From the IMG/VR virus record IMGVR_UViG_3300045988_054045: a stretch of 64,000 bases of DNA. One strand, 5' to 3'. The position numbers and the translations under genes were made by a program. Positions 3,001-64,000 of this stretch are shown one piece after another; position 1 is the stretch's first letter, and every line of letters begins with the position of its first letter. The notes below the pieces were generated by a model. That model had not been told where the DNA came from. It saw nothing but the letters and a program-made list of their open reading frames with translations, and did no database searches. The stretch comes from a virus.

Positions 3001-6000
3001 GGGGTAATTCCATTTAGTGACCCAAGCATCTTTAATGGACTTTGTTCTGCTATATCGTCCACTTTAACTAAGGCAGCTATTAGATTACAATTTAATGGTA
3101 GCCTTGCTGTATTGAATCCTTCTCATAAGATTTGGAAGCTGTATGGTGATAGAATGTATGATTCTTTTAATAATGATGAAGAAATTCAGAAGTTACAGGA
3201 ATTGTATAACTCTAAGCCTATAACTAACCTGTCGGAGTTGAGACTTGGTAGACACTATACAATTACTGTGGGTGATACTACATCTACAGAATTTATAGAA
3301 ACTCCTCAGCAGTACTGGGATTTAAGAAGCAGACTAACTCAGTCCGAACTAATGGGAATACCATTTAGTATTGTTGAAAACATTACAGCAGGTCGTGATT
3401 TAGCATCTTATAACTTCACGTTCAAGGACGTAGATGGAAACCTCTACAATATGTGGGATTTAGATGTAGTTAAAAATCTTTACTCTACCACTGACTCTAA
3501 AGAAAGAATACTCCTAAGAAGAGAGCTTCAGAATGCTTTGGGTGCAGTTAGTAATGGTAGGCTTGATTCTGTGTCCATTAATGGGGCAATAGTACAAGTA
3601 GATAAATCTTCTCTACAAACTCAGCCATTTGAGCTAATAATGCCTAAGATTTACGCTAGTAGATTCGGGCTGAAGAGAGGTGATAGTCTAGCAACCATTA
3701 AAAATGATGACACATTCTTCCTAAAGAGGATGTTATCAAATTGGGAAAGTAAAGTTAATGATGCTGATTTCGACATTGAACTGAAGAGGTTAAATGGTAA
3801 GCACGTATATCTAGTAGACAAGAGAGTTTATAAAGATACTCACTTGACTCCTGTGGAAATTGAGACTAGGTGGGATGGAGCTAAGCTTTACAGAGTTAAT
3901 AGCTCTGGAGAGAAGCTACACAGACTATCTGATGAATCAGATAGAATATACACTGATGTTAATGGTAATGAAGTAATTGTTACTAATAATACTCAGTTCT
4001 ATATTGATTCATTTAATTACCACACTATAAAGGTATCTAATAGTGCTGCTATGAGTAAGGATATTAGTAAGATTATTCAGCCTATACTAAGCTCAAAGTC
4101 TAAGGTGGCGAGTAGATTCGCCAAGTATATAGGTAAGAATGACCCTACTGATATTATAACTTATGTGAATAAGCTATACTCAGAAAGTATTAGTAAGTTG
4201 AGAATTAATCCTAGAGCTAAGATAGAAGACCCAAGTATTGATGCAATCAGAGATTCTGCTGCTGAATTACATACGTCTTTTATTAAATCTTTGGATGTTC
4301 TAGCTGCTCGTATCCCTGCTCAGTCTATGCAATCATTTATGCCTATGAGAGTAGTGGGATTTGACGAGACTGACACAAACTCCGCCTACGTTAATTACTT
4401 CCAGTTTTGGCTACAGGGTTCTGACTTGGATATTGATAAAGTTTCCTTGTTAGGATATTCATTTGACAGGACAGGTAAGTATGTTGGATGGAGTCCATAC
4501 TTTAATTTGAGTTCTCAGAGTGCATTAGTGGAATCTGAGAAGCTGCCATTCCCTACAAATAAAGAGTTAGAGTTGGTTGAGACTGATGATACAGCATTGA
4601 CTAATTGGGCTTATGATTTTGTAGGTTCAGGGAAATTGTTTAACTTTAGTGGTTCAAAAGTTCTATTCCTGCCAGAATATGACTTGGACAATTCTTTAGG
4701 TTCAATACAATCTTTATCGAACTTCTTAAGAATGATTAAGAAAAACGGCGGTAAATTGTATATCCCTAAAGGTTCTAGGCTTCCTTTTAACGAAATGAAG
4801 GAGTTGATTGACCGACACAATTTATACGTAAGGAACTCTAGTAACCCAGAGGATATGATTAAGAACTTCATATCTTCTTATATGTTCAAGATTAGTGATA
4901 ATCCTATTAATTTAATGCAATCACAATCATCTATTGATGATGCTGTGGCATTGTTAAAGGATATAGCTAAAGGGTCAACAGAAGGTCAGAGAACTCTACA
5001 ATTTACTCCAGGTAATGTAGTAAATAAGTATGAGTCTATGTATGATTTTCAATCTGGTAAGAAGAACGTTGGTATAGTTGCATCTGCTATTAAAGTGTAT
5101 GATGGTCTAACCCATTATTATAACACTACACTAGGTAGCGGTGATGTAATGAAGCAATCTGGACTATTATTCAACAGAGTTGTTTGTGGTAAAACTTTTA
5201 GACTGTTAGCTAACTCATATACTAGTAATCTAGAATCCGTAAGAAATCCCGAAGTATTAGATGCGTTACAGAACGTAGATAATGACACTGATGCTAAGTT
5301 AGTATTCTCTGCATTAATGTCTGCTGCAACTGATAATGCTAAAGACCCGATATTGGCTAAAATCAATGCTGGTCCTAACATGATGGGATTATATACTTAT
5401 GGTACAGCTATTGGTATTCCTTTAAATGATTTAGCTGGTACTATGATGTCTAAGACTGCTCGTATCCTTTCTAAGCTTATGGACTCTAATGTATTTAATA
5501 GGAAAGATGGTATGTCAATTACCAGTGCTATTAAGTATATCGAAAATGGTCCTAGCATTGGGGAATTAGACCCTGAATTCATCTCTATACTAAAGAAGGA
5601 GTTTGGGTCTGGCACAGATGCATCTGACTTCGTAATTGGTAAGATGTTACAATATAGACTCTCTGACTTATCTAAAGGTCACGAATTGATTGATAGCTTA
5701 AGAAAGAGAATAAGGTCTATGGAGGCGTCTATGAACAAGGTTTCAATGTATAAGTTTCTAGAAGAGTTATCTGATTATATTAGATTCGTCTATATCATAA
5801 ATAATGATGTAATCACTAACTCTGAAGGGGTACAATACAGAGCCATTGATTCGATAAAACAATTAGTTCAGGGTGCATCTGAGATGGGTAGGTTAAGGAG
5901 TATATATGCTCTTAATCAAGGTCTTCCTAACAAAGTAGAGGATAAATTTAAGTTTATCGATAAATTTGAAAGTATCTTCGAGGATAGAATAAGGGAGATT

Positions 6001-7518
6001 TCAGGTGAAGAGAAGGAATCAACTGTAATGGTTAATGGAATGGTTATGAAAGTTTCTGACGTTATCTCAAAGCTAAGGAATCTAACTAACGATGAAAGTA
6101 ATCCATACAGAATTTCTTTCAGCAGATTCATGTCTGACGAAGAGTATAGAAATACCTTAATTGCTCTATATGGAGGATTAAAGCATTCATTCAATGTGTT
6201 AGATGCAGCTTGGTCAGTACCTCACTACAGGGGCTACTTAGAAACTTTCCATATGGATATGGAAGGTAATTACATGATTATGTCTAAGTACAGAATGATG
6301 AGGGATTTAGGTCCTAGAATCATCAAAGATGGTAGCTTCTATAGCAGTAAGGAAAGGTCTAATGTTTATAAGAAGCTTCAATCATTCTGTGATATGACTC
6401 TTAGAAACACTTGGATGAAAACTTCTGAAAAGGTAATTACAGTCCCAGCAGGTGTAACTATTATGAATAGTATTGGTAATACCTTTACTACTCAAGGTGA
6501 TACCCCTATTATGTTAGGAACGAGGTGGGGTAATGAGTCATTTAAGATGTGGATGGATTCTGTGGTGATTCCCGAATTAAAGGATATAGAACCTAATGAA
6601 TTTATTCAATCTCTAAGTCCTATTAGATTAGATAGAACACTTAGTGGTAACTCTGCATTTGTGTATTCTTTACCAACTAATATGTTGCCTAAGTCTACAT
6701 CAGAGATAGAGCGTTTAAACAGATATAAGAGAGCCTTTAATCAATTACAAGGTGCTCCTACATATCAAGGTTATCCACTAACTGATTTATTCTTCTATTA
6801 TAATCTGATAAACTTTAACAACACTGTCTCTCAAAGTTCTTTGACTACAATCTTTGAGGACATCATTAGAACAAAGTCATCCCCACTGGTTGAGGAATTT
6901 CATAAATTCACATCAGTGTTAGATTCTAACTCAGAGTTAGTTGAGGGGGTAGATTTCTCTTATGAAGAAGCTCAAAAGTGGTGTGCCCCTATTGAGGATA
7001 CTAATTATTCTACTAGTTATTATGTCAGAGACTATAACAACGCAGATATGAAGTATCATCTATTTGTAAGAAAATCTAACTCTGCTGACGTTGGTGAGGT
7101 AGATGGAGATTTTGACTATGATTCCGATTATATGGATTGGGTTGGAGATGATTATGATAATGGAGACATGGGTGGACGTCAATATGGTCCTAACCTAGAG
7201 GATTATACAAAGGTTATTGAAAATACCAACTATACTAATCCCTGGGATACAGCTGACATATATAATGACTACAACATAAGAATTGACTCAAATTCTGTAA
7301 TTAATCTTGATGCTGACAAGAAGCTAAAATCTATAAGCTATAAGGGTAAAACCTATAGTAAGGAGGTTCTAGTGAGTCTAGCTAAATCACTAGGTGGCTC
7401 TGAATCAGATTTAGATATACCTTATGTAACCAGAGTTGTTGATGGCATAAACGTGAAAGCTATTGATGGCTTACAGTATTCTGCAATCATAACTCAACTA
7501 TTAGACAATCCTTGTTAA
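1..7518 (+). CDS. Giant virion-type RNA polymerase (crAss-like vRNAP family), 5' partial; reading frame is open from base 1
   Basis: Frame 1 has no stop from nt 1 to the TAA at 7516-7518. The track start at 334 is only the first GTG, so the protein exceeds 2500 aa. A DLDID (DxDxD metal-binding type) motif lies at nt 4423-4437 in the context FWLQGSDLDIDKVSLLGY. Coupled giant ORFs follow it, as in crAss-like transcription/ejection blocks. Confidence 0.7.
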   Translation, partial: LTTFNGKEDWEKALPFFKEFLYLDFVSDGPLVESYLALKTKNGNIQYESAISDLLQLSTSIFFNSYFSHNLVPKETSTQEFRRRQEEVFGAENLTSIKRGSKDIGILLPSYVPVMEDVAAAYAMTTDAYVSGIARDGEGRALSGVAMSMLGTNYRNQWVNQCMNPGSATNAFSLLNSSFLHRGMVVSREYKGKIGSKKHIDFNMSESFYTAFVSNYLCNIVGNTDAAFLPSVISDKSSLIHMVENLKSTSGLDKPYANLTKDETIAIINKELGDCYVKIINSITSEWEQLNSALRSIDTSLVFNNPVQYPLLASKKVIPVFNPMTNFAEVNAVYGNDSRKVLEEVLRVYQNIVRGKDLEIKDEVSFQGSKTLSFNRTLISLTNRFNPEYFTRAGLNVEEVFGKLTNSEDFWRIKEVELLTDLLDNDFMIETTDERGNALTTPEVAYLAKNKDWIKFSTKRVILAKYTNFGKTFDITKWSDLYSIGGYTENGITYNWGTPGFSFSKFLEIRGGELQLHPDLARFNVMDYLLSQEYVLSTVGTHANHPAKKATSSPNDLVEEAARYIAQHKRNVSYTAAKQVMIQGLINGILPEYTIAVIEDDTAPTYNPMGDHDEHGVKQYDGSTFVSPETMYLENNSLGGAKVGVDKKPFIHFYKEGSATGGIIKTAGFALTNFTMRNSKFYQRMVKKMWGKTWEFEGSLFNDNVLVDFQGNLIPYEDVYYKGTDGKFYMINSITYVPEDGTYMIIKSEVEPDGTIVRQLPAEITPKPGEGPRVTASGTTLYPVTTNFGLYQMFGGWNSYSKSEDGLIPSEVSVRNVVKAVNGVGVKVSDSVVSQSDVVQPLKWASIQYVVTAGAIKQGAANVNLKHAYFDDNPYLTMKFKTTDIGIQLDAEHNADESTLSIMTQVVNALSSRGYTSEQAGEVYEAMFALTEAGINDYVEGFRQYMDDSDPTKFKDAIISTIVKSIQNSTSRDGNLMQAVMDTLISDTKAGKLVKYKNVEGVIPFSDPSIFNGLCSAISSTLTKAAIRLQFNGSLAVLNPSHKIWKLYGDRMYDSFNNDEEIQKLQELYNSKPITNLSELRLGRHYTITVGDTTSTEFIETPQQYWDLRSRLTQSELMGIPFSIVENITAGRDLASYNFTFKDVDGNLYNMWDLDVVKNLYSTTDSKERILLRRELQNALGAVSNGRLDSVSINGAIVQVDKSSLQTQPFELIMPKIYASRFGLKRGDSLATIKNDDTFFLKRMLSNWESKVNDADFDIELKRLNGKHVYLVDKRVYKDTHLTPVEIETRWDGAKLYRVNSSGEKLHRLSDESDRIYTDVNGNEVIVTNNTQFYIDSFNYHTIKVSNSAAMSKDISKIIQPILSSKSKVASRFAKYIGKNDPTDIITYVNKLYSESISKLRINPRAKIEDPSIDAIRDSAAELHTSFIKSLDVLAARIPAQSMQSFMPMRVVGFDETDTNSAYVNYFQFWLQGSDLDIDKVSLLGYSFDRTGKYVGWSPYFNLSSQSALVESEKLPFPTNKELELVETDDTALTNWAYDFVGSGKLFNFSGSKVLFLPEYDLDNSLGSIQSLSNFLRMIKKNGGKLYIPKGSRLPFNEMKELIDRHNLYVRNSSNPEDMIKNFISSYMFKISDNPINLMQSQSSIDDAVALLKDIAKGSTEGQRTLQFTPGNVVNKYESMYDFQSGKKNVGIVASAIKVYDGLTHYYNTTLGSGDVMKQSGLLFNRVVCGKTFRLLANSYTSNLESVRNPEVLDALQNVDNDTDAKLVFSALMSAATDNAKDPILAKINAGPNMMGLYTYGTAIGIPLNDLAGTMMSKTARILSKLMDSNVFNRKDGMSITSAIKYIENGPSIGELDPEFISILKKEFGSGTDASDFVIGKMLQYRLSDLSKGHELIDSLRKRIRSMEASMNKVSMYKFLEELSDYIRFVYIINNDVITNSEGVQYRAIDSIKQLVQGASEMGRLRSIYALNQGLPNKVEDKFKFIDKFESIFEDRIREISGEEKESTVMVNGMVMKVSDVISKLRNLTNDESNPYRISFSRFMSDEEYRNTLIALYGGLKHSFNVLDAAWSVPHYRGYLETFHMDMEGNYMIMSKYRMMRDLGPRIIKDGSFYSSKERSNVYKKLQSFCDMTLRNTWMKTSEKVITVPAGVTIMNSIGNTFTTQGDTPIMLGTRWGNESFKMWMDSVVIPELKDIEPNEFIQSLSPIRLDRTLSGNSAFVYSLPTNMLPKSTSEIERLNRYKRAFNQLQGAPTYQGYPLTDLFFYYNLINFNNTVSQSSLTTIFEDIIRTKSSPLVEEFHKFTSVLDSNSELVEGVDFSYEEAQKWCAPIEDTNYSTSYYVRDYNNADMKYHLFVRKSNSADVGEVDGDFDYDSDYMDWVGDDYDNGDMGGRQYGPNLEDYTKVIENTNYTNPWDTADIYNDYNIRIDSNSVINLDADKKLKSISYKGKTYSKEVLVSLAKSLGGSESDLDIPYVTRVVDGINVKAIDGLQYSAIITQLLDNPC

Positions 7519-7519
7519 T

Positions 7520-8605
7520 ATGGCAGTATGTCTTAATAAAAATTCAGTAGAGTACCAGACATTGTTGAAGATGTCTGGTCTCTCTGAATTTAAATTTAAT
7601 GCTTTTACATCTACATTTGTAGATAAATTTGGTAGGTATCCAGAACTCGATGAGATACCTGGGGCTGACTCTAGACCTTATCTGAATAACTCTTTGTCAG
7701 TCAAAACAATAGATGATACGAGTTTCGTAAAGAATGATAAGATATTTTCTCAAACTGGCACAACAGATGTCAAAGAGGCTAATATTAGGATAAATAACAC
7801 GTATCGAGACTTGGAGGTTAAGCTAACCCCTTCTAGTGAGGTGTCTACGATACAAGTTAGGAAACGCCCAAATAAATGGGACAATGTATATGAGGGGGGA
7901 ATAATTATTGATGACTCCACATCTTCCTCTAGGAATGTTGGAGTTTTTAATAGTATATTAGAGAAATTAGCAAACCTCTATGGTATTAATTTTATTAGCA
8001 TTACTAACGGGGAACTATCCTCAGAACAATGGAAGGGAGTCGTAGATGATGCTAAAACAACTAACGCTTTCGTCTACAATGGTAATATATACATTAATAT
8101 AGATAATTCTAGCATTGATGCTCCATTGCACGAAATGTTACACCTATTCTTGGGTTCAGTTAGGTACAGTGACCCTCAACTATATTTTTCAATGGTGGAG
8201 GCTATGAATGAATTACCTAACAAAGCACTATTGGCTAGAAATTATAAGGACAGAACAGATTCTGACATAAATGAGGAATTGTTGGTGTTGGAGTTTTCAA
8301 AATATGTAACTGGACAAGATAGTATTATTAGTAAGTTGCCAGTTAATGTGCTACATAAAACATTCTACAATATGGGTAGAGTGTTAGACTCTATCTTATT
8401 TGGAGAGCAGAGTATAGCTACTATGGACACAAAGAGTCTATTCAACTCCTCTTTAGTAAAACTGTCTGAATATCTAGGTTCTGCACTAACTAATAATCAA
8501 TATTCAGGAACCTTTAATGTTAAGTCAGCTGAGGTTCACAGAGTATTAGCTAACGTTAAATCAGATTTAATGAAGAATAAAGACCTAAAAGAATTTTGTG
8601 GATAA
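7520..8605 (+). CDS. Zincin-like metallopeptidase-motif protein (HExxH + downstream Glu)
   Basis: HEMLH at nt 8129-8143 in the context IDAPLHEMLHLFLGS. A Glu lies 19 residues after the second His (VEAMNE), which is gluzincin-like spacing. The ATG is 1 nt after the upstream TAA (TAATATG). Confidence 0.55.
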   Translation: MAVCLNKNSVEYQTLLKMSGLSEFKFNAFTSTFVDKFGRYPELDEIPGADSRPYLNNSLSVKTIDDTSFVKNDKIFSQTGTTDVKEANIRINNTYRDLEVKLTPSSEVSTIQVRKRPNKWDNVYEGGIIIDDSTSSSRNVGVFNSILEKLANLYGINFISITNGELSSEQWKGVVDDAKTTNAFVYNGNIYINIDNSSIDAPLHEMLHLFLGSVRYSDPQLYFSMVEAMNELPNKALLARNYKDRTDSDINEELLVLEFSKYVTGQDSIISKLPVNVLHKTFYNMGRVLDSILFGEQSIATMDTKSLFNSSLVKLSEYLGSALTNNQYSGTFNVKSAEVHRVLANVKSDLMKNKDLKEFCG

Positions 8606-11600
8606 TGGGATGCATTTATGATTACAAAGGACATATCTTCCAATCTGAATTAGAATTAGATGATTTCTTACTTGAAAGGGGACATTTAGTATCTAAGTAT
8701 GGGGACATTGTGTTTAGTAAAAGCAATAGGGCTATCCAGACTTATGACTCCGTAATGAACTTAAAGATGGATACTGAGGCTCTTAAAGCAAGTAAGATAA
8801 TCTCTGAGGTTGAAGATGGAAAAAATGATATTGAAAACATTAATGTATCTGGAAATGGATATATTGGTGTGAATAAGTTTCTACAAGGTCTTAGAAACTT
8901 GGAGGGGGACTTATTATTCCCAGAATTTAGACCTGAAAATTATTGGAAGGAGATTAAGCCAAGATGGGCAGGAGGCAAGTTTGACAAAGAGGAGGCTGAT
9001 GCAATATTTGGTGAGGGAGTAGAAACTAGACCTATTGTAAGTGATGAGGAGTTTGCTAGAGCAAGAGAGGTTATTGAAAACAAATGGAAAGCTCAGGGTA
9101 AAATTGGTACTGAACTGCATAAGGCAATACAAAAGTATTTCAGTGAATCAAAGAGTGGTAGGAATATAAGGGAATCAGATGATAACTTCCTAATCAATAC
9201 GTATTTCCCATCTATATTAGACACTAAGCTAGTTCCAAGCAAGGTTATTGCAGAAACCGTCAAATACTGTAGAGACCTAGAGAAATCATTACAGAGAGAA
9301 TTTGGTGAAGACTTGATATACCTTCCAGAAGTTGCAGTTTCTGGAACTACTTCTCAAATAGGAGAATCTGGAAATCCCAATAAGCTATTAGGAGTTATTG
9401 ACTTACTAGTAATTGATGGAAGGGGAAATGCCCACATTATTGACTACAAGACATCACCCAGACCATATGTAGGAACTGCTTCTGAAGCTGGGTATGATTC
9501 TGCTAAAATCTTGACCTTCAAATACCAGCTAGGTGTGTATGAGCGTCTATTAAGAAAATATGGAATAAACACTAGCGGTTCTAGGTTGTTTGTAGCCCCC
9601 ATTCAGCTGTCAGATTTTAAGAGAGAAGGTGACGATTGGGTATACAGTGGTATAAAAGAATATTCAGGTCATGTAGAAGACTTGACTCAAGATATTAAGA
9701 CAAATATTAATATACAAGAGAATATTGACGAATTCCTTCCAGCACCGTTTGTTACTAAAGCTACAACGGAAAACCTACTCCAAACTGTAACCAGTGTAAT
9801 GTCAAAGTGGTTCCCTAAATATGATAGCGTTCCAGGAGAAATCACGGATGATATGGTAGCTGAAACTATAAAAGAAGGGAAGGGTGATAAGCCTAACCCT
9901 GAAACAGGTAAGTATGTATACTCTCCAAAAGGCAATGGGTATCCTCTTAAGGGAGATACATATGAGGAGCTATTTGTAAAGGTAAAAAGAAGGATGAATA
10001 GTATAGCCAACAATAAGATAAACACCACTCAGGTTATTAAGGAGGGTTTAATAAAGGCTATAGAGGATGAGAATCCGTACTATGAGTTTACAAAAGCACA
10101 AATTCCAGACAATCCTAGTGGAGTTAATGGATGGTTTCAAAGAAGAATGTCTAGATATTGTAACCGTAATTGGGAAGTGGTCGACTGTGAACCTGCAGAA
10201 TATCTAGGGTGCATACTACTCAGAAATAAATTTACTAATCAAATAGATGTAGTGAAAATTAGTACATCAATGCTAAAAAGGTCTAGAGAGTTAGTAAAGG
10301 GAAGACATGGTCTTACTGGAGCATTCGAAAGTGATATTATATCGCAGAATAAACCTAACTCTTTGATGATGGAAAGTGTTAATGGTAATATAGAACTAAT
10401 GGAAGCTATGTTAGTGCTTAATAATTTACCTAGTCTGTTTGAGGAGAACGCTATAGTAGGAGAAGTTAGTGTATATAACCCATTTAGAGAGGAGGGTATA
10501 TCTGCAGACAATAAACAGCTGTTATACTGCTTCAATGAGTTGGACAAGCTGTCTCCTATTGGCGTAAATAACATGAAGGGAAGAAACGCTGCTGTTAAGA
10601 TGGCGAATAGGTATGATATATTCTATAACAGGTTTAGGGAGATTATATCTAATGTTAAGGATGATACTAAGATAAACAAGAAGTGGAGAAAGTTTACTGA
10701 ATCTACCAGTGCTCTAGATGCTTGCATTGGAGACCCAACCCAGCTTAGACTAGAGCTTCTTAACCTTAGAAAAGAGTTTTTGGAAGCATTTCCTAACGTT
10801 AATGATACTAGACCTAACGATGATGTAATAGGTATGCCTCACGTCCAAGTATACAGGATGCTAGAAATGGCTATTGGTGAAATAGACGGTCTTGACTTCA
10901 GACAGCAGCTTAGTGACCATGATAAGTGGTTAGAATCAATTTATGTATGGAAAGCTGGTATGGAAGGTACATATCTTGATAATCCTGGTAATATGAAGAG
11001 TCCTATCCTAAATAAGTTGACCTCTTTAGTAACTGTGGCTTATCAGAATATCAGGGATACCGTAAATAGGTCTCAGGGAGAAATCAGGAATTTAGTCAAT
11101 GAATTAAAGAAGGACCAGAACTTCACCTATTTAAAGGAGAGGACAATAGGTAATCAGGCTACTCTATACAGAGATATGATAGTATATACAGATGATGGTG
11201 ATATACTACTAAAGAATCCAGACGACCCAACAACTGGGCTATCTGAGGCACAGAGGAAATTTCTGAAGTATTTTCTTAAAACGGTTAATTCCAACAGATT
11301 TAAGAATATGACTGAGGAAGAATTAGAGGAACTAAGGTTGTCAGGCGATGTTAGGTATTACAGGCTACCTCTAGCTGCTGGTAATGCTACATCTATTGCC
11401 TCAAGTAAGGGACTATTATCTGCAATAAAAGACAAGCTCCAGGATTGGAATCCAAAGAAGGCTGTAGAAAGGGCTAAAACAAAGGTAGAGGGCTTCTTAG
11501 ACCCAACTGACGTTAAAATTGAGAAAGTCCGTAAGGGTGAGCTATGGGAGATGACCAACTCATTTGATATTGGTGAAAAGGGTTCAGAGATACGATTAAG

Positions 11601-13305
11601 TCTAATAGAGGACAGGAAGCCAGAGTTCTTTGAAGCAAACCTTGAAACCCTGTTACTTAAACATATTACTGCATACTCAGCTAAGGAACACTTAGATGAA
11701 ATCTTCCCATCACTTCAAGCTCTAGCTATCCATTTAAGTGACATGGGTACTATTCTGAATGATAAGTTTGAAGATGATTTAAAGTATTTAAGTGACTACG
11801 TTAGAAATAAGATATTTAATCAATCTCTAATTTCTGACGACCGTAAACCTTTAGCGGCAATAACTGGAGGATTGATGGGATTTGCATCAAAGATTGCATT
11901 AGCATTCTCTCCAGTTCAAATGTATCAGCATTTAGATGGAATCTGGAAGGATATATCATTGGTAATAAGAAAACCAGATGGAGGTTTAGCTTTTACTAAG
12001 GAGAATATGACTAAGGCTTATAAGTATGCTATAGCTGATGCTATTCATTATGGTAATACCAAATCCATGTCAGAGTTATTAAATGAACAATATGGTCTTA
12101 ATGATATGGACATGAATACTTATGCTGATAAGATAAAGTCAGACCAAGCAGGTATATGGAACTTTTGGGCTTCAGCATTTAGATTTGCATCAAGACCTGA
12201 CTTCTATAACAGAATGACTATATTCGGAGCACAAATGAGGGGTGACGGATGTTGGGAAGCACACTCTGTGGTGAATGGTAAGTTAGTTTATGACTGGAAG
12301 AAGGATAGTAGATTTAGTGCATATGCTAATGGTAATACGTCTAGTCCCGATTACAAAAAGCAAGAAGCACTGTACTACACTATGGCACACCAGTTAGTTA
12401 AGGAGCACACTAGGAATGCAGATGGCTCATTATTCAGAGTGGGTGACGCTCTACCAAAGGCATACACCGTTCAACAATCGGAGAGCCATAAGGCTTTAGC
12501 TGACTCTATATATGGATATTATTCTCATGAGAAGAAATCTATGTTTCAAAGTACTCTAATTGGAGGTCTATTCTTCCAAATGTGCACATATTGGTCTTCT
12601 AAGAAGAATCAATATCTAGCCCCTGAAGGTATAAAACTACAGGGCAGACTAGTCCACTACGAAGAGAATGGTCAAAAGTATTATCACAAATTAGATGATA
12701 AGGGACAGCTTACAGATGAAGCAACTACTGAAGATACAGGATTTCCATTTTATAAATGGGAAGGACGATTTGAGGAAGGTATCTTATTGACTTTCACTAA
12801 GGTTTTAAATGACTTAGTAGTAGGTTCTTATAAAAAGGGTAGTATAAGAGAGGGATGGAAACTAATGACTAATGACATCTGGAATAATGAAGATGAGAAT
12901 CTTAGAAGGGCGTATAGGTCTAATTTACGTCAATTGTTCTATGACTTGTTCATGTTATTATTCGTTGGGGCAGTAGTCAGTGGCTCTTTGGCAGAATTTG
13001 TTAAGGATGATATTAAGGAGAGAGGTAATGATACCATGAATGATGCTGTAATAAACACAACTCTATCTCTTGGTAGTAAGATACTTACCAACTCTGCTTA
13101 TGACTTTAACTTCCTTGATGCTATTGCTGGACGAGGAACACAATGGACTCCATTCTCATTTGAAACACTTAACAGAACAGTAGATACATTCTCAAGTGTA
13201 ATATCAGGAGATAAGTCTTTGTATCAGGGTTTAATTAATACTGTGGCAGCTACTAGAGCTACTAAGCCAATCTGGGATTATATAGACCCAACTAAGGAAG
13301 AATAG
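8605..13305 (+). CDS. Giant (about 1566 aa) protein with N-terminal PD-(D/E)XK nuclease motif and a C-terminal hydrophobic helix; probable virion/ejected protein
   Basis: GVIDLLVIDGRGNAHIIDYKTSP (nt 9391-9459): D at 9400-9402 and D-Y-K at 9442-9450, with an upstream helix GTELHKAIQKYF. The ATG at 8605 overlaps the upstream stop (TAATG); the track's TTG at 8596 is less likely. Hydrophobic stretch LFYDLFMLLFVGAVVSGSLAEF at about nt 12931-12996. Confidence 0.6.
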   Translation: MGCIYDYKGHIFQSELELDDFLLERGHLVSKYGDIVFSKSNRAIQTYDSVMNLKMDTEALKASKIISEVEDGKNDIENINVSGNGYIGVNKFLQGLRNLEGDLLFPEFRPENYWKEIKPRWAGGKFDKEEADAIFGEGVETRPIVSDEEFARAREVIENKWKAQGKIGTELHKAIQKYFSESKSGRNIRESDDNFLINTYFPSILDTKLVPSKVIAETVKYCRDLEKSLQREFGEDLIYLPEVAVSGTTSQIGESGNPNKLLGVIDLLVIDGRGNAHIIDYKTSPRPYVGTASEAGYDSAKILTFKYQLGVYERLLRKYGINTSGSRLFVAPIQLSDFKREGDDWVYSGIKEYSGHVEDLTQDIKTNINIQENIDEFLPAPFVTKATTENLLQTVTSVMSKWFPKYDSVPGEITDDMVAETIKEGKGDKPNPETGKYVYSPKGNGYPLKGDTYEELFVKVKRRMNSIANNKINTTQVIKEGLIKAIEDENPYYEFTKAQIPDNPSGVNGWFQRRMSRYCNRNWEVVDCEPAEYLGCILLRNKFTNQIDVVKISTSMLKRSRELVKGRHGLTGAFESDIISQNKPNSLMMESVNGNIELMEAMLVLNNLPSLFEENAIVGEVSVYNPFREEGISADNKQLLYCFNELDKLSPIGVNNMKGRNAAVKMANRYDIFYNRFREIISNVKDDTKINKKWRKFTESTSALDACIGDPTQLRLELLNLRKEFLEAFPNVNDTRPNDDVIGMPHVQVYRMLEMAIGEIDGLDFRQQLSDHDKWLESIYVWKAGMEGTYLDNPGNMKSPILNKLTSLVTVAYQNIRDTVNRSQGEIRNLVNELKKDQNFTYLKERTIGNQATLYRDMIVYTDDGDILLKNPDDPTTGLSEAQRKFLKYFLKTVNSNRFKNMTEEELEELRLSGDVRYYRLPLAAGNATSIASSKGLLSAIKDKLQDWNPKKAVERAKTKVEGFLDPTDVKIEKVRKGELWEMTNSFDIGEKGSEIRLSLIEDRKPEFFEANLETLLLKHITAYSAKEHLDEIFPSLQALAIHLSDMGTILNDKFEDDLKYLSDYVRNKIFNQSLISDDRKPLAAITGGLMGFASKIALAFSPVQMYQHLDGIWKDISLVIRKPDGGLAFTKENMTKAYKYAIADAIHYGNTKSMSELLNEQYGLNDMDMNTYADKIKSDQAGIWNFWASAFRFASRPDFYNRMTIFGAQMRGDGCWEAHSVVNGKLVYDWKKDSRFSAYANGNTSSPDYKKQEALYYTMAHQLVKEHTRNADGSLFRVGDALPKAYTVQQSESHKALADSIYGYYSHEKKSMFQSTLIGGLFFQMCTYWSSKKNQYLAPEGIKLQGRLVHYEENGQKYYHKLDDKGQLTDEATTEDTGFPFYKWEGRFEEGILLTFTKVLNDLVVGSYKKGSIREGWKLMTNDIWNNEDENLRRAYRSNLRQLFYDLFMLLFVGAVVSGSLAEFVKDDIKERGNDTMNDAVINTTLSLGSKILTNSAYDFNFLDAIAGRGTQWTPFSFETLNRTVDTFSSVISGDKSLYQGLINTVAATRATKPIWDYIDPTKEE

Positions 13306-56861: not shown

Positions 56862-57247
56862 TATTCAATTATTTTAGTACTTAGTAAGTTGTCTAATCTT
56901 AAAGCTGTTTGTGCCAGCGTTTCAGTAGGAATCACATAGTTACCAGTTGCATTTACAAGTATGTCAGTACCATCTAAAACTGGATTGGTTTTAATGGGCT
57001 TCTTATTAACGGTCTTGTTTCCAATCTCGTCAATCTTATCCTGCATATTATCCAACATCTCCTGGATTTTGTCTAATATGTCAACGATTTCCTTATTATC
57101 AAGGAATACAACCCATTTCTCACCATCATATAACAGCATCTTACTGTTATCCTTAATCCAGATATGGTAAATAGTTGGAGGAGTCATATCGCCCCTCCAG
57201 AAATTTACCTGCTTATTATTTACCATTGCATCTGCCATGTTATTCAA
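56861..57247 (-). CDS. Hypothetical small fibre-associated protein
   Basis: 128 aa with an IWIKDNSKMLLYDGEKWV segment followed by a coiled-coil. Overlapping start and stop codons. Confidence 0.45.
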   Translation of the reverse strand: MNNMADAMVNNKQVNFWRGDMTPPTIYHIWIKDNSKMLLYDGEKWVVFLDNKEIVDILDKIQEMLDNMQDKIDEIGNKTVNKKPIKTNPVLDGTDILVNATGNYVIPTETLAQTALRLDNLLSTKIIE

Positions 57248-60125
57248 GTATTATAGAAGCATTAGTAGTAATATTATTAACTATCTCTTCTAATGCTGTA
57301 AGTTTGTCCATTAGTATTTTTCCTTGAGCTGCTGATAGACTTATCTTGGTATCATCTGTAACTAGGTTATTCACTACTATCGGAAGTATCCTCTTTGTAC
57401 AAGTAAACTTAAAAGCCTCCTCTTCACTTTCATTATACTCTAAATTGGTAACTATCTCTAAATCTTCATAACTGTTTAGATGATACATGGTAGTTACACT
57501 TATACTCCTAACTGAATTTATGTCAGTTTGGCTAGTCCCAACTTTATTGTATGCTACAACATAATTATCAATAGAGTACTCCACTACAGAGGTATAGGAT
57601 GAGAATAGTAATTCCATAAATTCGATAGCTTCATCTCTCACATCAAAAGGTACCTCAGAGTTTAAAATATCATTATAAATTACTGATTGGGCTGAATTTA
57701 AATCAGTTCTAATAGAGTCAACCTCTGACTTAATAGTGGTATCGTTGTAGTTCTCTAGACTGTCAACTTTATCCTTATATTGGGTGGTAAAGTCGTTAGT
57801 AGAAAGTCCTTTACCTTCTTCCTTTATTACAAATTTACTAACATCAGGAATCTCAGTCTTTAAAGCATAACCACTTAAATCAACTCCAGGTATAGCAGTA
57901 ATTTGTTGCTGAACCCAAGTTTCAGTAGCTAAACCTTCAATACTTGGGATAACGGGTGTATTAATAAGGTCATTATAATCCTTAGAGAACAGTTCTGATT
58001 TGTCTGCCTTACTATTCAAAGTATTCTTTACACTACTTATCTCAGTGTTAATACCTCCTATGGTAGTATTCTGAGCTAATATAGCATCACTCAATTTCTT
58101 GAATGTATTGTAAGATGGGTCAGCACCTTCTAAGATTATGTTAAACCTTCCATCAGTATATTCCTTAGCACTAAGTAAAGCATCGGCAGCCGCACCTGCA
58201 GATTCAGCACCAAGTTCTTCTAATGTATATGTAGGTTTAGTAGGTTGTTTAGCCCATGAAGGAACAGTAGGGTCTGTTTCTGTAAACTCTGTCAGGTAAC
58301 CTTTATCCTCTAATTCCTGTTCAGTAACTAGGTTCTCTGGCAATGAATTTAGATAACCACTATCATTTTCTAATTGAGAAACTCTAGTAGGTATTTCAGT
58401 CTTATCAGCCTTACCACTAATATCTGGAATATCAGTTTTATTAGCTTTCTTCTCAACTTCTGAGCCTAAGTTTGTTATGAGTTGCCTAACAGCAGAATCA
58501 TTGTAGTTAGTCAGCCCAGCTAATTTAGCCTTTTCCTCTATACTAAAATTCTGCTCTGATAAACCCATACCAGCCTGTTTATCAACCTTATTATTCCAAT
58601 TATCAATGTCCTGCTGATTTATGTTCTTGGCAGCACTGGCTGCAAACTGAGGTTCTAATTCTTGGGTTAAGTAACCTTTAGCCTCTAACTCTTCATCAGT
58701 AACATACTCTTCTGGAACTTCTGATAAGTATTCAGAATCATTCTCCAACTGAGAAACTTTGGTAGGTATCTCACTCCTATCAGCTTTATTAGAAACGTCT
58801 GGAATCCTATCATCTACTTCCTTCTTAGTATAGTAGTTGTTGAGTTGAATATCACCACCCTCAATAGCTGCAAGTTTATCGTCTACTTCCTCTTTAGTAT
58901 ATACAGTATGTTTGTCAGCTTTTGCAGCTAATAGCTCTCGTATAGTTGTTGTATCAATACTCTCTGGATTATATCCACTCTGGTCAAGTATTTCTACAGT
59001 TGTCTCTCCCAATCCAGGTTGGGCACTCTTAAATATATAATATAGGTTGCTAAATATTTCTTGAGTTCCAAGTAATTTAAAACCACCTATAATGCTACTA
59101 ACTCCTAGAACTGTATTAGCTCCGTTAGGAATCATAACATATATATATTCATTAGCTCCCGCATTTACTGTATAAACATTATCAATAGTTCTATCTAACT
59201 TAGTATAGTCTGGAGAAGTTCCAAAGTAATTTGGATATTTAATGTCAAATGTAACAACTCTTGTAGCACTAATATCCTCATACTTATACTTTAGAGTAAT
59301 TACCATAGATGTAGTCCTGTTAGTAAAAGTATACTCTCTTACATCAGGACTTAGTACAACATCATTGATAGACTGTTCTACAACATCCTTATAATATTCC
59401 CAAGTAACGGTTACATCCGTAGGTTCGTCTCCATAACACATATACTCTGGGTCTAGAGATATAGCCTTGACGTTATCATCAATAGATGCAGCTGCAATTT
59501 TAGCATTAACCCATTCAGTAGATGCAATTCTATTAGAATTATCTGTCATCAGGGGTAATGTAGTAGTTGGAGTTCCAGCAAAGTTAGGAGAGAATATGTC
59601 AGCTTTGTTTTTAAATCTAATTTCTATCTCGCAAGCCCATTGAGCGAGTTTAAGATTAATCTCATCAATAACCTTATTAATGTCGAAGGCTATTGAATCA
59701 GTTACAAAGGTATATAAATCTTTTTGATTAGACAAGTTACCTTTGATGTTTCCCCACTTTAGAGCATATTCATCTGCTATACCGAGGTTAATTCTGGCTA
59801 TTGTTCTTTGGTATTCATCAGTTAATTCTGAGAATAAATTCTCCTTCTGAAATCCATCGTCTCCACCAGTACACCCATAATATTTAGAAGTATCACAATC
59901 ATCCTTGATACAGATGTGTTCTACTCCTTCCTCTTCTATTTTTACCCCATCTATCTTCTCTATAGTAATAACACCATAGTCAGCACAGATTCCTTCAACT
60001 TCTTCTTTTTCTATAACTCCATCTATTATCTTGGTGTCTGGCTTTATATTGGAGATAGAATGTGGGTAATCAGGTAAAATGGGAGCCTCTTGTTCTTGTT
60101 CGTCAAGACGTATAAACTCTGCCAT
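57240..60125 (-). CDS. Tail fibre protein (961 aa) with duplicated KAD..EIPT.VSQLENDS.YL modules
   Basis: Two copies of a roughly 45-aa module (nt about 58285-58435 and 58665-58805) plus related KADK heptad-like segments. Confidence 0.6.
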   Translation of the reverse strand: MAEFIRLDEQEQEAPILPDYPHSISNIKPDTKIIDGVIEKEEVEGICADYGVITIEKIDGVKIEEEGVEHICIKDDCDTSKYYGCTGGDDGFQKENLFSELTDEYQRTIARINLGIADEYALKWGNIKGNLSNQKDLYTFVTDSIAFDINKVIDEINLKLAQWACEIEIRFKNKADIFSPNFAGTPTTTLPLMTDNSNRIASTEWVNAKIAAASIDDNVKAISLDPEYMCYGDEPTDVTVTWEYYKDVVEQSINDVVLSPDVREYTFTNRTTSMVITLKYKYEDISATRVVTFDIKYPNYFGTSPDYTKLDRTIDNVYTVNAGANEYIYVMIPNGANTVLGVSSIIGGFKLLGTQEIFSNLYYIFKSAQPGLGETTVEILDQSGYNPESIDTTTIRELLAAKADKHTVYTKEEVDDKLAAIEGGDIQLNNYYTKKEVDDRIPDVSNKADRSEIPTKVSQLENDSEYLSEVPEEYVTDEELEAKGYLTQELEPQFAASAAKNINQQDIDNWNNKVDKQAGMGLSEQNFSIEEKAKLAGLTNYNDSAVRQLITNLGSEVEKKANKTDIPDISGKADKTEIPTRVSQLENDSGYLNSLPENLVTEQELEDKGYLTEFTETDPTVPSWAKQPTKPTYTLEELGAESAGAAADALLSAKEYTDGRFNIILEGADPSYNTFKKLSDAILAQNTTIGGINTEISSVKNTLNSKADKSELFSKDYNDLINTPVIPSIEGLATETWVQQQITAIPGVDLSGYALKTEIPDVSKFVIKEEGKGLSTNDFTTQYKDKVDSLENYNDTTIKSEVDSIRTDLNSAQSVIYNDILNSEVPFDVRDEAIEFMELLFSSYTSVVEYSIDNYVVAYNKVGTSQTDINSVRSISVTTMYHLNSYEDLEIVTNLEYNESEEEAFKFTCTKRILPIVVNNLVTDDTKISLSAAQGKILMDKLTALEEIVNNITTNASIILE

Positions 60126-62070: not shown

Positions 62071-62448
62071 TTATACATTAAAGTCAGCTCTTACTTTAGT
62101 CTTTATATTTCCTACTAGTGTAAGGTAGTCTAAATATTTCTGTCTATCTGTCTGGTCATCGGATAGTCCTAGAACAATACTATTAGAGCTGTTGATTAAA
62201 TCAAACTCCTCATCTTGGTCTACATACTGCCTAATAATGGCTTTGATGCATTCTTTGTGGTCTGGTTGACCAAACAGATGAACTTGAATATACGTCCACC
62301 TTGTCTCTTGTGTTACCTCTTCAGTCTCAGGGTCAGTAACCTCTACTACTTTAGACTGAATATCATAATTATAGTAATATGTGCCATTACCTAGCTTCTC
62401 TATTGAGTTAGGTTGTACATTCATTTCTATTCTTTTTGGTTCTAACAT
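62071..62448 (-). CDS. Hypothetical acidic protein overlapping the RT 3' end
   Basis: 125-aa ORF whose start overlaps the last 41 nt of the RT gene. It is acidic and beta-rich, so it does not resemble Avd. Confidence 0.45.
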   Translation of the reverse strand: MLEPKRIEMNVQPNSIEKLGNGTYYYNYDIQSKVVEVTDPETEEVTQETRWTYIQVHLFGQPDHKECIKAIIRQYVDQDEEFDLINSSNSIVLGLSDDQTDRQKYLDYLTLVGNIKTKVRADFNV

Positions 62449-63643
62449 AAGGTCTTATTTTAAAATTTACTGGGAATGAATATCTGGTTAGAGAGTAGAA
62501 TAGTTCCCTGCTCTTACTCTCAAAGTAATAAGATTTGTTATTGTATACAAAGTTAACTCTAAAACACTTACTATAGCTAACCATATCCACAACATGAATA
62601 TACTTGTTATAAAATCTAGAAATATTAGACTTCTTCCCGTCCCAATTAGAGAACCTTAAACCTGTATCTCTTTGAATCTTTCTTAACAGATTCTTTGAAT
62701 TACAGAATTTCAGCCAACCAAAATAGGATTGCATTCTCCTTCTTAGTTCTTGTCTGTCTATTTTACCAGTTTGGTATCTACTAACAAGTCTAAATAACCT
62801 AATTTTAATTGACTTTCTCAGTAATACATGGGTGTGATAGAACCTATAGCCAACGAAGTCTATACCTCTAACATCTACTGGGAATATTTGGTAATTTGAT
62901 TTCAACCTTAAATTTAGAACCTCTTTTAAGTACATCTTTATTGCTATGAGTACTCTTCTCAAGAAGTCCTTATCACTGCTGAGAATTACAATATCATCAG
63001 CATACCTGAAGTAGAATTTACATTTTAATTCTTCCTTAACCCAATGGTCAAAGTAAGCTAAGTATAAGTTTGCAAAGAATTGAGAAAGATAGTTTCCAAT
63101 AGGAACGCCGTCTGCTGAATAAATGATTCCGATTAGCAGGATTAATAAATTTTTATCCTTAATCTTACGTTTGATTATATCACACAATATGTCATGGTCA
63201 ATAGAAGGATAAAACTTCTTTACATCCATCTTTAAACAATAGAGTGTTTCATTTGGATGCTTTACCAAAGCTGCTTTTAAATCGTATGCTACATTATGAA
63301 TACCTCTATCCTTAATACAAGAATAAGTTTGCTTGATGAATATCTTAGTCCAGATAGGCTCCATTACATTCATAATAGCATGATGTGTTATTCTATCTGG
63401 ATAGTATGGTAATCTAAATATCAACCTTTCTTTGGGTTCATATATTTTAAATGTACTATACTCAGAAGTTTCATAAACTAAATCTCTTAGCTGTTCTGAA
63501 AGTCTTCTATTCTCTTCCTCTCTGTTCTTATCATGTTTGAGGATTCCCCATCTTACTGATTTATGCTTTCTAGCTTTATCATCTGCTTTCTCAATATTCT
63601 CTATATCATATACCTGTTCATGTAAATAGCCTATACGCTTCAA
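62408..63643 (-). CDS. DGR-type reverse transcriptase
   Basis: RT motifs read in order: KERLIFRLPYYPDRITHHAI, LKMDVKKFYPSIDH, GVPIGNYLSQFFANLYL (nt 63080-63100 encode IGNYLSQ), FRYADDIVILS (YADD at nt 62993-63004), IDFVGYRF. The start is TTG: a TAA lies two codons upstream and there is no in-frame ATG for about 90 codons. Confidence 0.85.
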   Translation of the reverse strand: MKRIGYLHEQVYDIENIEKADDKARKHKSVRWGILKHDKNREEENRRLSEQLRDLVYETSEYSTFKIYEPKERLIFRLPYYPDRITHHAIMNVMEPIWTKIFIKQTYSCIKDRGIHNVAYDLKAALVKHPNETLYCLKMDVKKFYPSIDHDILCDIIKRKIKDKNLLILLIGIIYSADGVPIGNYLSQFFANLYLAYFDHWVKEELKCKFYFRYADDIVILSSDKDFLRRVLIAIKMYLKEVLNLRLKSNYQIFPVDVRGIDFVGYRFYHTHVLLRKSIKIRLFRLVSRYQTGKIDRQELRRRMQSYFGWLKFCNSKNLLRKIQRDTGLRFSNWDGKKSNISRFYNKYIHVVDMVSYSKCFRVNFVYNNKSYYFESKSRELFYSLTRYSFPVNFKIRPYVRTKKNRNECTT

Positions 63644-63717
63644 GTCTTATATATTTATTGTGGAAGCTTTCGAGAATTAACCTACTAACACCCTGTTATT
63701 AAATACTACGTTGTCTT

Positions 63718-63743
63718 TTGCCAAGAGGCAAGGGTGCTGTTTA
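63718..63743 (-). repeat. Spacer stem-loop plus distal arm of a 14-nt inverted repeat bracketing the TR
   Basis: - strand RNA: UAAACAGCACCCUU (63743-63730) is the exact complement of AAGGGUGCUGUUUA (63938-63925). It is immediately followed by the hairpin UUGCC-UCUU-GGCAA (63731-63718). Confidence 0.6.
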
Positions 63744-63782
63744 GACTGTAAAATAAAACAAATTACCTAAAGAAATATATAA

Positions 63783-63938
63783 TAAGCCTACATTAGTATT
63801 AGCATTGCTGACTCCATTATTAGAATTGAAGTAGCTAAGACTAGCATTACTACCATTATTAGCGTTGCTGCTAACGATGAGTGTTTTGTAATAATTTTCT
63901 TGTCCAGCACCAACAGAATATAGGTAAACAGCACCCTT
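63783..63938 (-). repeat. DGR template repeat (TR) candidate, non-coding; 5' boundary uncertain
   Basis: Lies directly upstream of the RT in the same orientation. Stops occur in all frames upstream, and there is no start codon. In the frame set by the VR match it has at least 10 AAY codons within 29 codons (AGC AGC AAC GCT AAT AAT GGT AGT AAT ... AAT ACT AAT GTA GGC). Confidence 0.65.
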
Positions 63939-63966
63939 AATCTCGTATTGTTATCTTATATAATTA

Positions 63967-64000
63967 TTAAACTACTTTATTTAGTGTCCTGAAGCCCACA
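63967..64000 (-). CDS. 3' end of the presumed DGR target gene (partial; ...VGFRTLNKVV*), containing the last bases of the VR
   Basis: Open frame from the window edge to the TAA at 63969-63967. Nt 63991-64000 (+: GAAGCCCACA) aligns to the TR at 63783-63792 (+: TAAGCCTACA) with 8/10 identity, and both mismatches fall at TR adenines on the coding strand. The GFR motif is typical of C-type-lectin-fold VR ends. Confidence 0.5.
   Translation of the reverse strand, partial: VGFRTLNKVV

Follow-up and report, generated by a model that had tools for sequence, protein, structure and literature searches.

A very probably active diversity-generating retroelement at a tail-fibre-like gene of a crAss-like gut phage, with no Avd gene detected in its surroundings

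The 64,000-nucleotide (nt) stretch of viral DNA analyzed here (IMG/VR record IMGVR_UViG_3300045988_054045; hereafter, the window) ends in a diversity-generating retroelement (DGR), which we conclude to be real and very probably active. Its parts, all on the (-) strand, are a target gene carrying the variable repeat (VR), a non-coding template repeat (TR) and the gene of a reverse transcriptase (RT), in that order and with no gene between VR and TR. We have high confidence that this is an active DGR with the layout target gene (VR)-TR-RT that has no Avd gene. A preliminary description of the window had considered that the lineage might be undescribed. Avd-less DGRs with this layout have, however, been published for crAss-like phages (PMC7290462, 2020; PMC11054128, 2024; PMC12386605, 2025), and the element is a well-documented example of a published kind of DGR, not a discovery.

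No TR-like repeat is present inside the window according to generic repeat finding and to a scan scoring non-adenine positions only. Contig L004 (ENA ERZ917278, 189,018 bp) is identical to the window across 11.6 kb (0 mismatches), and the VR could therefore be recovered from it (window position = 73644 - L004 position, so that window 64000 is L004 9644). When the sequence is extended past nt 64000 and searched for repeats, as the preliminary description had proposed, the upstream gene proves to carry the predicted near-repeat of ~100 nt at its 3' end. The final 11 codons of this gene, ending VGFRTLNKVV*, are the ORF (open reading frame) end with a GFR motif that had been noticed before. The VR is offset 208 nt upstream of the TR, which leaves ~105 nt between the two repeats. 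The intergenic stretch 5' of the RT gene on the same strand is 323 nt long and non-coding, in agreement with the earlier view of an AAY-rich non-coding tract; of 33 codons read in the target frame, 10 are AAY. The range previously assigned to the TR (63783-63938) does contain it, and the part homologous to the VR is narrower (63886-63784, (-) strand); one arm (the 5' one, 63937-63925) of an RNA duplex described below falls in the extra 5' portion. The exact RT protein is present on many human-gut metagenome contigs, and relatives with RTs that are 49-99% identical have, in nearly all cases, the same target-VR-TR-RT cassette. In the phage of the window, the cassette is preceded by the portal gene. 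A search for near-identical DNA among GenBank phages gave no match.

The differences between TR and VR follow the adenine rule of DGRs, as the preliminary description had predicted. In the genome of the window, all 26 mismatches are located at TR adenines and none elsewhere (99 aligned nt), and for six genomes pooled, this holds for 146 of 147 mismatches. In addition, 23 further IMG/VR loci were retrieved with a TR 34-mer. In the 23 genomes with an intact TR/VR pair, 552 mismatches are at TR adenines and 7 elsewhere, and the 23 VRs are all distinct; the TR itself, compared over 29 related loci, is identical in 18. The TR contains 35 adenines; in the VR frame, 19 of them occupy the first, 12 the second and 4 the third codon position (31 at position 1 or 2). 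The homology between the repeats terminates in GT(G/A)GGCTT, and the last ~8 nt of the TR (GTAGGCTT) resemble the IMH* of known DGRs, the TR counterpart of the sequence for initiation of mutagenic homing (IMH). TR position 98 is an A (GTA), where the VR always has the synonymous GTG; this difference is fixed in 23 of 23 genomes. On sequence grounds, it would mark the limit of information transfer and would itself never be transferred, from which we infer that cDNA synthesis starts just 5' of GUAGG. No GC-rich IMH or downstream hairpin/cruciform of the kind known from BPP-1 is recognisable at the 3' ends of VR and TR.

Decaying cassettes are present in some close relatives (L009/L044, L012/L092, L046 and L056), all of which still contain the RT ORF. 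In L009/L044, the TR lacks 6 nt and 17 mismatches are not at adenines, L012/L092 have four non-adenine mismatches, and in some of these relatives the TR/VR homology is shortened.

The RT ORF with its motif series, reported before at 62408-63643 on the (-) strand, is real. The encoded protein of 411 amino acids contains GVPIGNYLSQFFANLYL and FRYADDIV, with IGNYLSQ at residues 182-188 and the catalytic YADD at residues 214-217, and its TTG start lines up with the annotated ATG start of the RT of crAssphage LMMB. It matches Pfam RVT_1 (E = 4.7e-18) and PHROG 1423 (388 bits). The closest relative by sequence among Protein Data Bank (PDB) structures, identified with phmmer, is the Bordetella-phage RT bRT (8ub7; E = 3.6e-47, 165 bits, residues 6-328), with group II and retron-type RTs reaching only 1e-13 to 1e-15. 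The same structure, 8ub7_A, is the top Foldseek match of the AlphaFold2 (AF2) model of the RT (mean predicted local distance difference test score, pLDDT, 84), with a TM-score of 0.92 (normalised to target) and a root-mean-square deviation of 2.3 Å. Because bRT is the best match by sequence as well as by fold, the RT is of the DGR type rather than of the retron, group II intron or abortive-infection (Abi) type, as had been proposed. The nearest annotated RTs, those of LMMB and the cr-phages, are 54-59% identical.

An RT from another retroelement or from a defence system (a retron, a group II intron or an Abi/DRT system), with a repeat that is there by coincidence, would fit the generic matches to group II, retron and DRT models that were obtained with NCBIfam and PADLOC. 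These matches are far below their cut-offs (for TIGR04416, 103 bits against a cut-off of 300), in contrast to the scores obtained with bRT and PHROG 1423, and an Rfam search of L004 9400-11400 revealed no group II intron or retron RNA. Moreover, 552 of 559 mismatches on adenines in a 100-nt repeat cannot be coincidence. The adenine-specific TR/VR pair refutes this explanation, and its probability is negligible.

The bRT-like core of the RT comprises residues 1-328. It is followed by a C-terminal extension of ~85 amino acids (residues ~329-411) that has a net charge of +11 and is conserved in relatives down to ~60% identity. In the AF2 model, residues 337-395 are folded, with good confidence, into a beta-beta-beta-alpha-beta mini-domain, after which a disordered basic tail follows. 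Pfam and PDB profile searches with the extension gave nothing significant. At its other border, the RT gene overlaps by 41 nt (62408-62448) with the neighbouring ORF 62071-62448, which encodes an acidic protein of 125 amino acids of unknown function (PHROG 11557) that is not Avd-like according to Pfam or PADLOC.

The target gene encodes a tail-fibre-like protein of 681 amino acids (PHROG 5302, 'tail protein', E = 7.6e-88). Its C-terminal module of ~430 amino acids is found on many different N-termini and has 10,005 representatives at 50% identity. A sequence search of the PDB gave no match for the target, and a fold comparison was therefore used. The AF2 model has a pLDDT above 93 for residues 250-680, and the top Foldseek matches in the PDB are TaqVP (5vf4; probability 0.99, E = 6e-3), Mtd, formylglycine-generating enzyme (FGE) and TvpA. 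Judged from this model, the C-terminal domain is similar to DGR variable proteins of C-type-lectin fold. The preliminary description had instead looked for the diversified protein among more than 25 kb of fibre genes downstream of the cassette. Several large ORFs on the same strand do match tail-fibre PHROGs, the full extent being only partly supported, but the target is the gene upstream of the cassette, and an A-to-N pattern scan of IMG/VR detected only the TR and the adjacent VR, with no second, remote VR in the window or in near-complete genomes. One of the downstream genes (ORF 57240-60125, (-) strand), encoding a fibre-like protein of 961 amino acids, contains a 140-nt direct repeat (58291-58430 and 58666-58805, 71% identity) that gives rise to two versions of a peptide (...IPTKVSQLENDSEYL... 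and ...IPTRVSQLENDSGYL...); a weak match to Pfam Phage_fiber_rpt was obtained with the L004 ortholog of the protein.

Variation among natural copies of the target is concentrated in the VR. The 114 full-length target proteins, which are 97-98% identical, have 114 distinct C-terminal 45-mers and 67 distinct N-terminal parts, and many of them share identical N-terminal 636 amino acids yet differ in the VR. The entropy is 0.94 bit per site at residues 641-680 and at most 0.08 elsewhere, and the 13 hypervariable sites are all located between residues 643 and 671. The VR residues fall within the codon sets accessible by adenine mutagenesis of the TR in 3978 of 3990 cells, and the upper bound of the VR repertoire is ~1e19 sequences. 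When the collection is clustered at 90% identity, target proteins sharing 97-98% identity nearly all form singleton clusters (P0031, P0151-P0269), each with its own VR variant; the cause is either a failure of the clustering in the face of hypervariation or a quirk of the database.

Assembly ends coincide with the VR as well. Three independent IMG/VR contigs stop at the same base as the window (64000, TGTGGGCTTCAG...), where the VR has its invariant 3' edge, and a fourth stops 29 nt inside the VR (the loci with such ends are L032, L034, L039 and L041). Position 64000 is thus probably a contig end, and the breaks are indirect evidence that VR variants coexist within samples.

In principle, the VR differences could stem from past activity or from ordinary diversifying selection in a DGR that has ceased homing, and some relatives (L009/L044 and L012/L092) do carry decayed cassettes. 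For the element in the window, this is very improbable: the RT ORF and its catalytic motifs are intact, the TR is preserved in most related loci, non-adenine mismatches are absent, all 114 VRs differ even where the N-terminal 636 residues are the same, and assemblies break in the VR.

The DNA around the TR encodes conserved RNA structures. The TR is flanked on both sides by the arms of a perfect 13-bp inverted repeat, and a tetraloop hairpin and an A-run are present directly after the 3' arm (Table 1). In relatives, the duplex arms keep their positions and their sequences co-change, for instance AGGGCACUAUUUA/UAAAUAGUGUCCU and AGGUUGUUAUUUU/GGAAUAACAACCU. Covariation was assessed after aligning 24 intergenic regions with MAFFT, without fitting the alignment to the structure. 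For duplex plus hairpin, 94% of cells are paired and 9 of 17 pairs have changes on both sides; for the 13-bp duplex alone, these values are 92% and 7 of 13, against 36-55% pairing for controls in which the 3' partner was slid. Of 500 shuffles, none reached the observed values on four of five measures, and five did so on the fifth, the count of further pair types. The hairpin of LMMB and that of L098 contain the changes G-C to A-U and C-G to U-A. Covariation was also detected, by RNAalifold, for a stem-loop in the spacer between TR and RT gene (63693-63662). A second candidate, a long-range AU duplex between the 3' flank of the TR and the region before the RT start, was rejected, as it did not outperform shuffled sequences (p = 0.35 in the genome of the window). 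In L074 (~2900-3000), a tandem duplication of ~70 nt is present in the spacer, from hairpin to stem-loop, upstream of the RT start.

The combination of duplex, hairpin and A-run matches the element called 'cPRT Stop' in the DGR RNA of Bordetella. In that element, the spacer pairs over 11 bp with a region upstream of the TR, a short stem-loop comes next and is followed by adenosines engaged in A-minor contacts, and cDNA synthesis requires the element both to start and to stop (bioRxiv 10.1101/2023.10.23.563531). By analogy, the 5' arm would correspond to the avd strand in the cPRT Stop duplex, and cDNA synthesis is predicted to stop there. The published survey of cPRT Stop elements included only DGRs possessing Avd (bioRxiv 10.1101/2023.10.23.563531). 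The ~40-nt linker between TR and 3' arm, where a hairpin of the Avd-binding type would be expected, has 0 pairs predicted by RNAalifold. The linker thus contains no conserved hairpin that could correspond to the Avd-binding stem-loop, in keeping with the absence of Avd.

Part of this RNA resembles entries in Rfam. The spacer (window 63735-63642, L004 9909-10002) aligns end to end with RT-17 (RF03020), with which it shares UGCCUCUUGGCAAAA and a UAGUAG...CGAAA stem-loop, and the hairpin region matches the 5' part of the RT-17 consensus. The score of 28.9 bits is below the gathering threshold of 40.4, so that the resemblance does not amount to family membership, and none of 14 related loci reaches the threshold. 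The match to RT-18 (RF03021) is weaker and also sub-threshold. RT-17 and RT-18 seem to represent spacer RNAs from related elements with an associated RT, but their reach does not extend to this lineage.

As noted in the preliminary description, no Avd-like gene accompanies the RT. Pfam searches of 49 small ORFs, covering the 64-kb window and 10 kb upstream of it (~74 of ~189 kb), identified no member of the Avd or 23S_rRNA_IVP family, and the ~105 nt between VR and TR hold no gene for one. Avd is absent from about a quarter of all DGRs and from all of 'lineage 3' (PMC7290462), and DGRs were reported in August 2025 for 18 of 43 Zeta crAss-like phage genomes, 16 of them without Avd (PMC12386605).

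The DGR could nevertheless work without being Avd-independent, if the host, or another part of the 189-kb genome, encoded an Avd-like four-helix-bundle protein acting in trans. The extent of the Avd scan leaves room for such a gene, Avd is essential in the sole DGR that has been reconstituted biochemically (bioRxiv 10.1101/2023.10.23.563531), and the remaining two DGR-positive Zeta phages, Lera and ct1yV3, carry Avd (PMC12386605). We nevertheless consider it unlikely, because the spacer has no conserved stem-loop at the place where Avd-containing DGRs have their Avd-binding hairpin, because so many DGRs, including an entire lineage, manage without Avd, and because the cassette keeps its target-VR-TR-RT order in relatives with 49-99% identical RTs and offers no space where a gene could be inserted.

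Taken together, the RNA element, the missing Avd-binding hairpin and the orphan RT domain suggest a one-protein DGR. A more specific proposal, which we put forward tentatively and would sooner bet against than for, is that a DGR of the crAss type truly consists of just two components, a protein and an RNA. The orphan basic mini-domain of the RT (~60 residues, net charge +11) would then do the job of Avd by bracing the template:primer duplex and the RNA, and the RNA would have kept the cPRT-Stop duplex, the hairpin and the A-run and lost the Avd-binding stem-loop.

By analogy with BPP-1, an RNA extending from the 5' arm through TR and spacer would be transcribed and would fold. The RT would bind the spacer, self-prime near the 3' end of the TR, copy the TR with misincorporation opposite adenines, and halt at the 13-bp duplex, after which the cDNA would replace the VR. 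As a result, 13 residues (643-671) on the ligand-binding face of the target would be randomised, which probably retargets host-surface recognition. The role that Avd has in BPP-1 would either be covered by the RT alone, perhaps via its basic C-terminal mini-domain, or not be needed.

Several points weigh against an active, Avd-less DGR working in this manner. Avd is small and easily missed, and its absence from the ~74 kb scanned may reflect this; for this Avd-less lineage, retrohoming is inferred from BPP-1; and the contig breaks do no more than imply that the VR diversifies within single samples. The Foldseek E-values of the target are weak (6e-3 to 0.5), though the list of matches is specific. 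The linker presumably holds the priming nucleotide, the exact site of which was not located, and RNAduplex analysis of the TR 3' end against the linker gave no consistent template:primer pairing across lineages. Finally, six TR adenines in AGY (Ser) codons are nearly always G (Gly) in the VRs. TR positions 36, 45, 51, 74 and 78 (window ~63851, 63842, 63836, 63813 and 63809) are G in 20-23 of 23 VRs, with positions 45 and 51 being G in all 23. Either most raw cDNAs give non-viable proteins, therefore, or transfer is more biased than assumed. The TR encodes residues that the target protein seems not to tolerate, and most unselected cDNAs should yield defective fibres.

Compared with the DGR of BPP-1 (8ub7), the RT core has the same fold (34% identity), the transfer from TR to VR is likewise adenine-specific and the target likewise has a C-type-lectin fold. 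The RNAs are alike in having a TR-flanking duplex (11 bp in BPP-1, 13 bp here), a tetraloop hairpin, unpaired adenosines and a spacer stem-loop, which contacts the RT in BPP-1 and is a candidate for doing so here. Unlike BPP-1, the element in the window has neither an Avd gene nor, just 3' of the TR, a stem-loop for Avd binding, its RT is ~85 residues longer at the C-terminus, no GC-rich IMH or downstream cruciform is recognisable, and the upstream duplex arm is located in non-coding DNA instead of inside avd.

crAssphage LMMB (MT006214; PMC7290462) has a similar DGR. Its cassette has the order target gene-VR(IMH)-TR(IMH*)-RT without avd, its RT is 57% identical over the full length, C-terminal extension included, and was placed by its authors in lineage 3 of Wu et al. 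2018 (PMC7290462), and its RNA has a 23-bp TR-bracketing duplex followed by the hairpin UACC-UCUU-GGUA and then by AAAAGAUAACG. However, LMMB is a 98-kb Carjivirus (Intestiviridae), whereas the phage analyzed here has a genome of ~189 kb and a TerL only ~30% identical to those of named Crassvirales. Moreover, the LMMB cassette is located between the tail-needle and IHF genes and has a tail-collar fibre of 486 amino acids as its target, in contrast to the position after the portal gene found here.

The DGRs found in Zeta crAss-like phages (PMC12386605) also have the order tail-fibre gene-VR-TR-RT, a GxxxSQ RT and a target ending in a C-type-lectin domain, and their RTs of 321-414 amino acids differ in their C-termini. 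The Zeta genomes measure 156-189 kb (ct1MR12, 189,162 bp; ct5Hm1, 189,255 bp), and the DGR-positive ct1MR12, ct5Hm1, ctZY71 and C017_43 have 186.7-189.3 kb and 36.4-36.5% GC (PMC12386605). The 189-kb contig identified here and the ~36% GC of the window fit the DGR-positive 'TFP group 1' of that study. The TR-bracketing duplex, hairpin and A-run are not described in that paper, which ascribes the C-terminal differences between RTs to the thumb subdomain. The DGR of the Epsilon crAss-like phage crAssE-Sib (PMC11054128) is also compact (receptor-binding protein-VR-TR-RT), has a target with a C-type-lectin fold and belongs to a large phage. Epsilon RTs, however, have GxxxSP and are missed by myDGR, whereas the RT in the window has the canonical GxxxSQ. 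Yutin et al. 2021 do not mention crAss DGRs.

That the window derives from a crAss-like phage, as previously assigned, is borne out by Pfam matches of its ORFs to Crass_capsid (54 bits) and crAss_MUZ (98.7 bits), both above the cut-offs, and to CrAss_Ring_1/2. Its TerL is ~30% identical to those of named Crassvirales and 59% identical to that of an unannotated gut phage. Contigs carrying the RT reach 186-190 kb, and this size, together with the GC content of the window, points to membership of the Zeta crAss-like group. The ORF of 2394 amino acids at 334-7518 on the (+) strand, presumed earlier to encode the virion RNA polymerase, has no PHROG, Pfam or PDB match. ORF 8596-13305 on the (+) strand (1569 amino acids) contains a PD-(D/E)XK nuclease domain. 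A GIY-YIG/I-TevI-type homing-endonuclease gene is located upstream of the terminase gene in L003 and L005 (369-1013) and is absent there in L004.

Table 1. Parts of the retroelement and RNA features around the TR, in window coordinates.
Feature	Position	Strand	Basis or remarks
DGR reverse transcriptase gene, 411 amino acids, TTG start	62408..63643	-	ORF, motifs, Pfam RVT_1, 8ub7 match
Spacer stem-loop GGGUG UUAGUAGG...CUCGAAA GCUUCC, candidate RT-binding element	63662..63693	-	RNAalifold covariation
4-bp tetraloop hairpin UGCC-UCUU-GGCA (63730-63719), then A-run AAAA	63716..63730	-	Stacked on duplex
3' arm (UAAACAGCACCCU) of TR-bracketing duplex	63731..63743	-	Covariation
AU-rich linker of ~40 nt, TR to 3' arm	63744..63783	-	No conserved hairpin
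TR, ~103 nt, non-coding	63784..63886	-	L004 9758-9860; homology to VR
5' arm (AGGGUGCUGUUUA) of 13-bp TR-bracketing duplex	63925..63937	-	Perfect inverted repeat, covariation
3' end of target gene (681 amino acids), ...VGFRTLNKVV*	63967..64000	-	L004 7632-9677; stop codon 63969-63967
VR 3' edge, last 9 nt (TGTGGGCTT), IMH-like, invariant	63992..64000	-	Rest off-window
VR, entire	nominal 64094-63992	-	L004 9550-9652; off-window part 64094-64001 = L004 9550-9643

What goes slightly beyond the literature consulted is the covariation-supported, cPRT-Stop-like RNA in an Avd-less lineage, the absence of the Avd-binding hairpin and the conserved basic orphan domain of the RT. With a defined RT and a defined RNA, the mechanism of Avd-less DGRs can now be tested directly. 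If the two-component proposal were true, it would be the first mechanistic account of the large fraction of DGRs without Avd, and it would provide a smaller chassis for DGR-based directed evolution. The results also permit re-annotation in GenBank, where the exact RT is a 'hypothetical protein' (DAW05285.1, DAW70047.1) and the target a 'Head fiber protein'. The phage is very abundant in the human gut, the cluster of its RT at 90% identity having 2,690 members, and in its cassette the hypervariation of a receptor-binding protein is cleanly recorded in nature, for a phage group without a cultured host.

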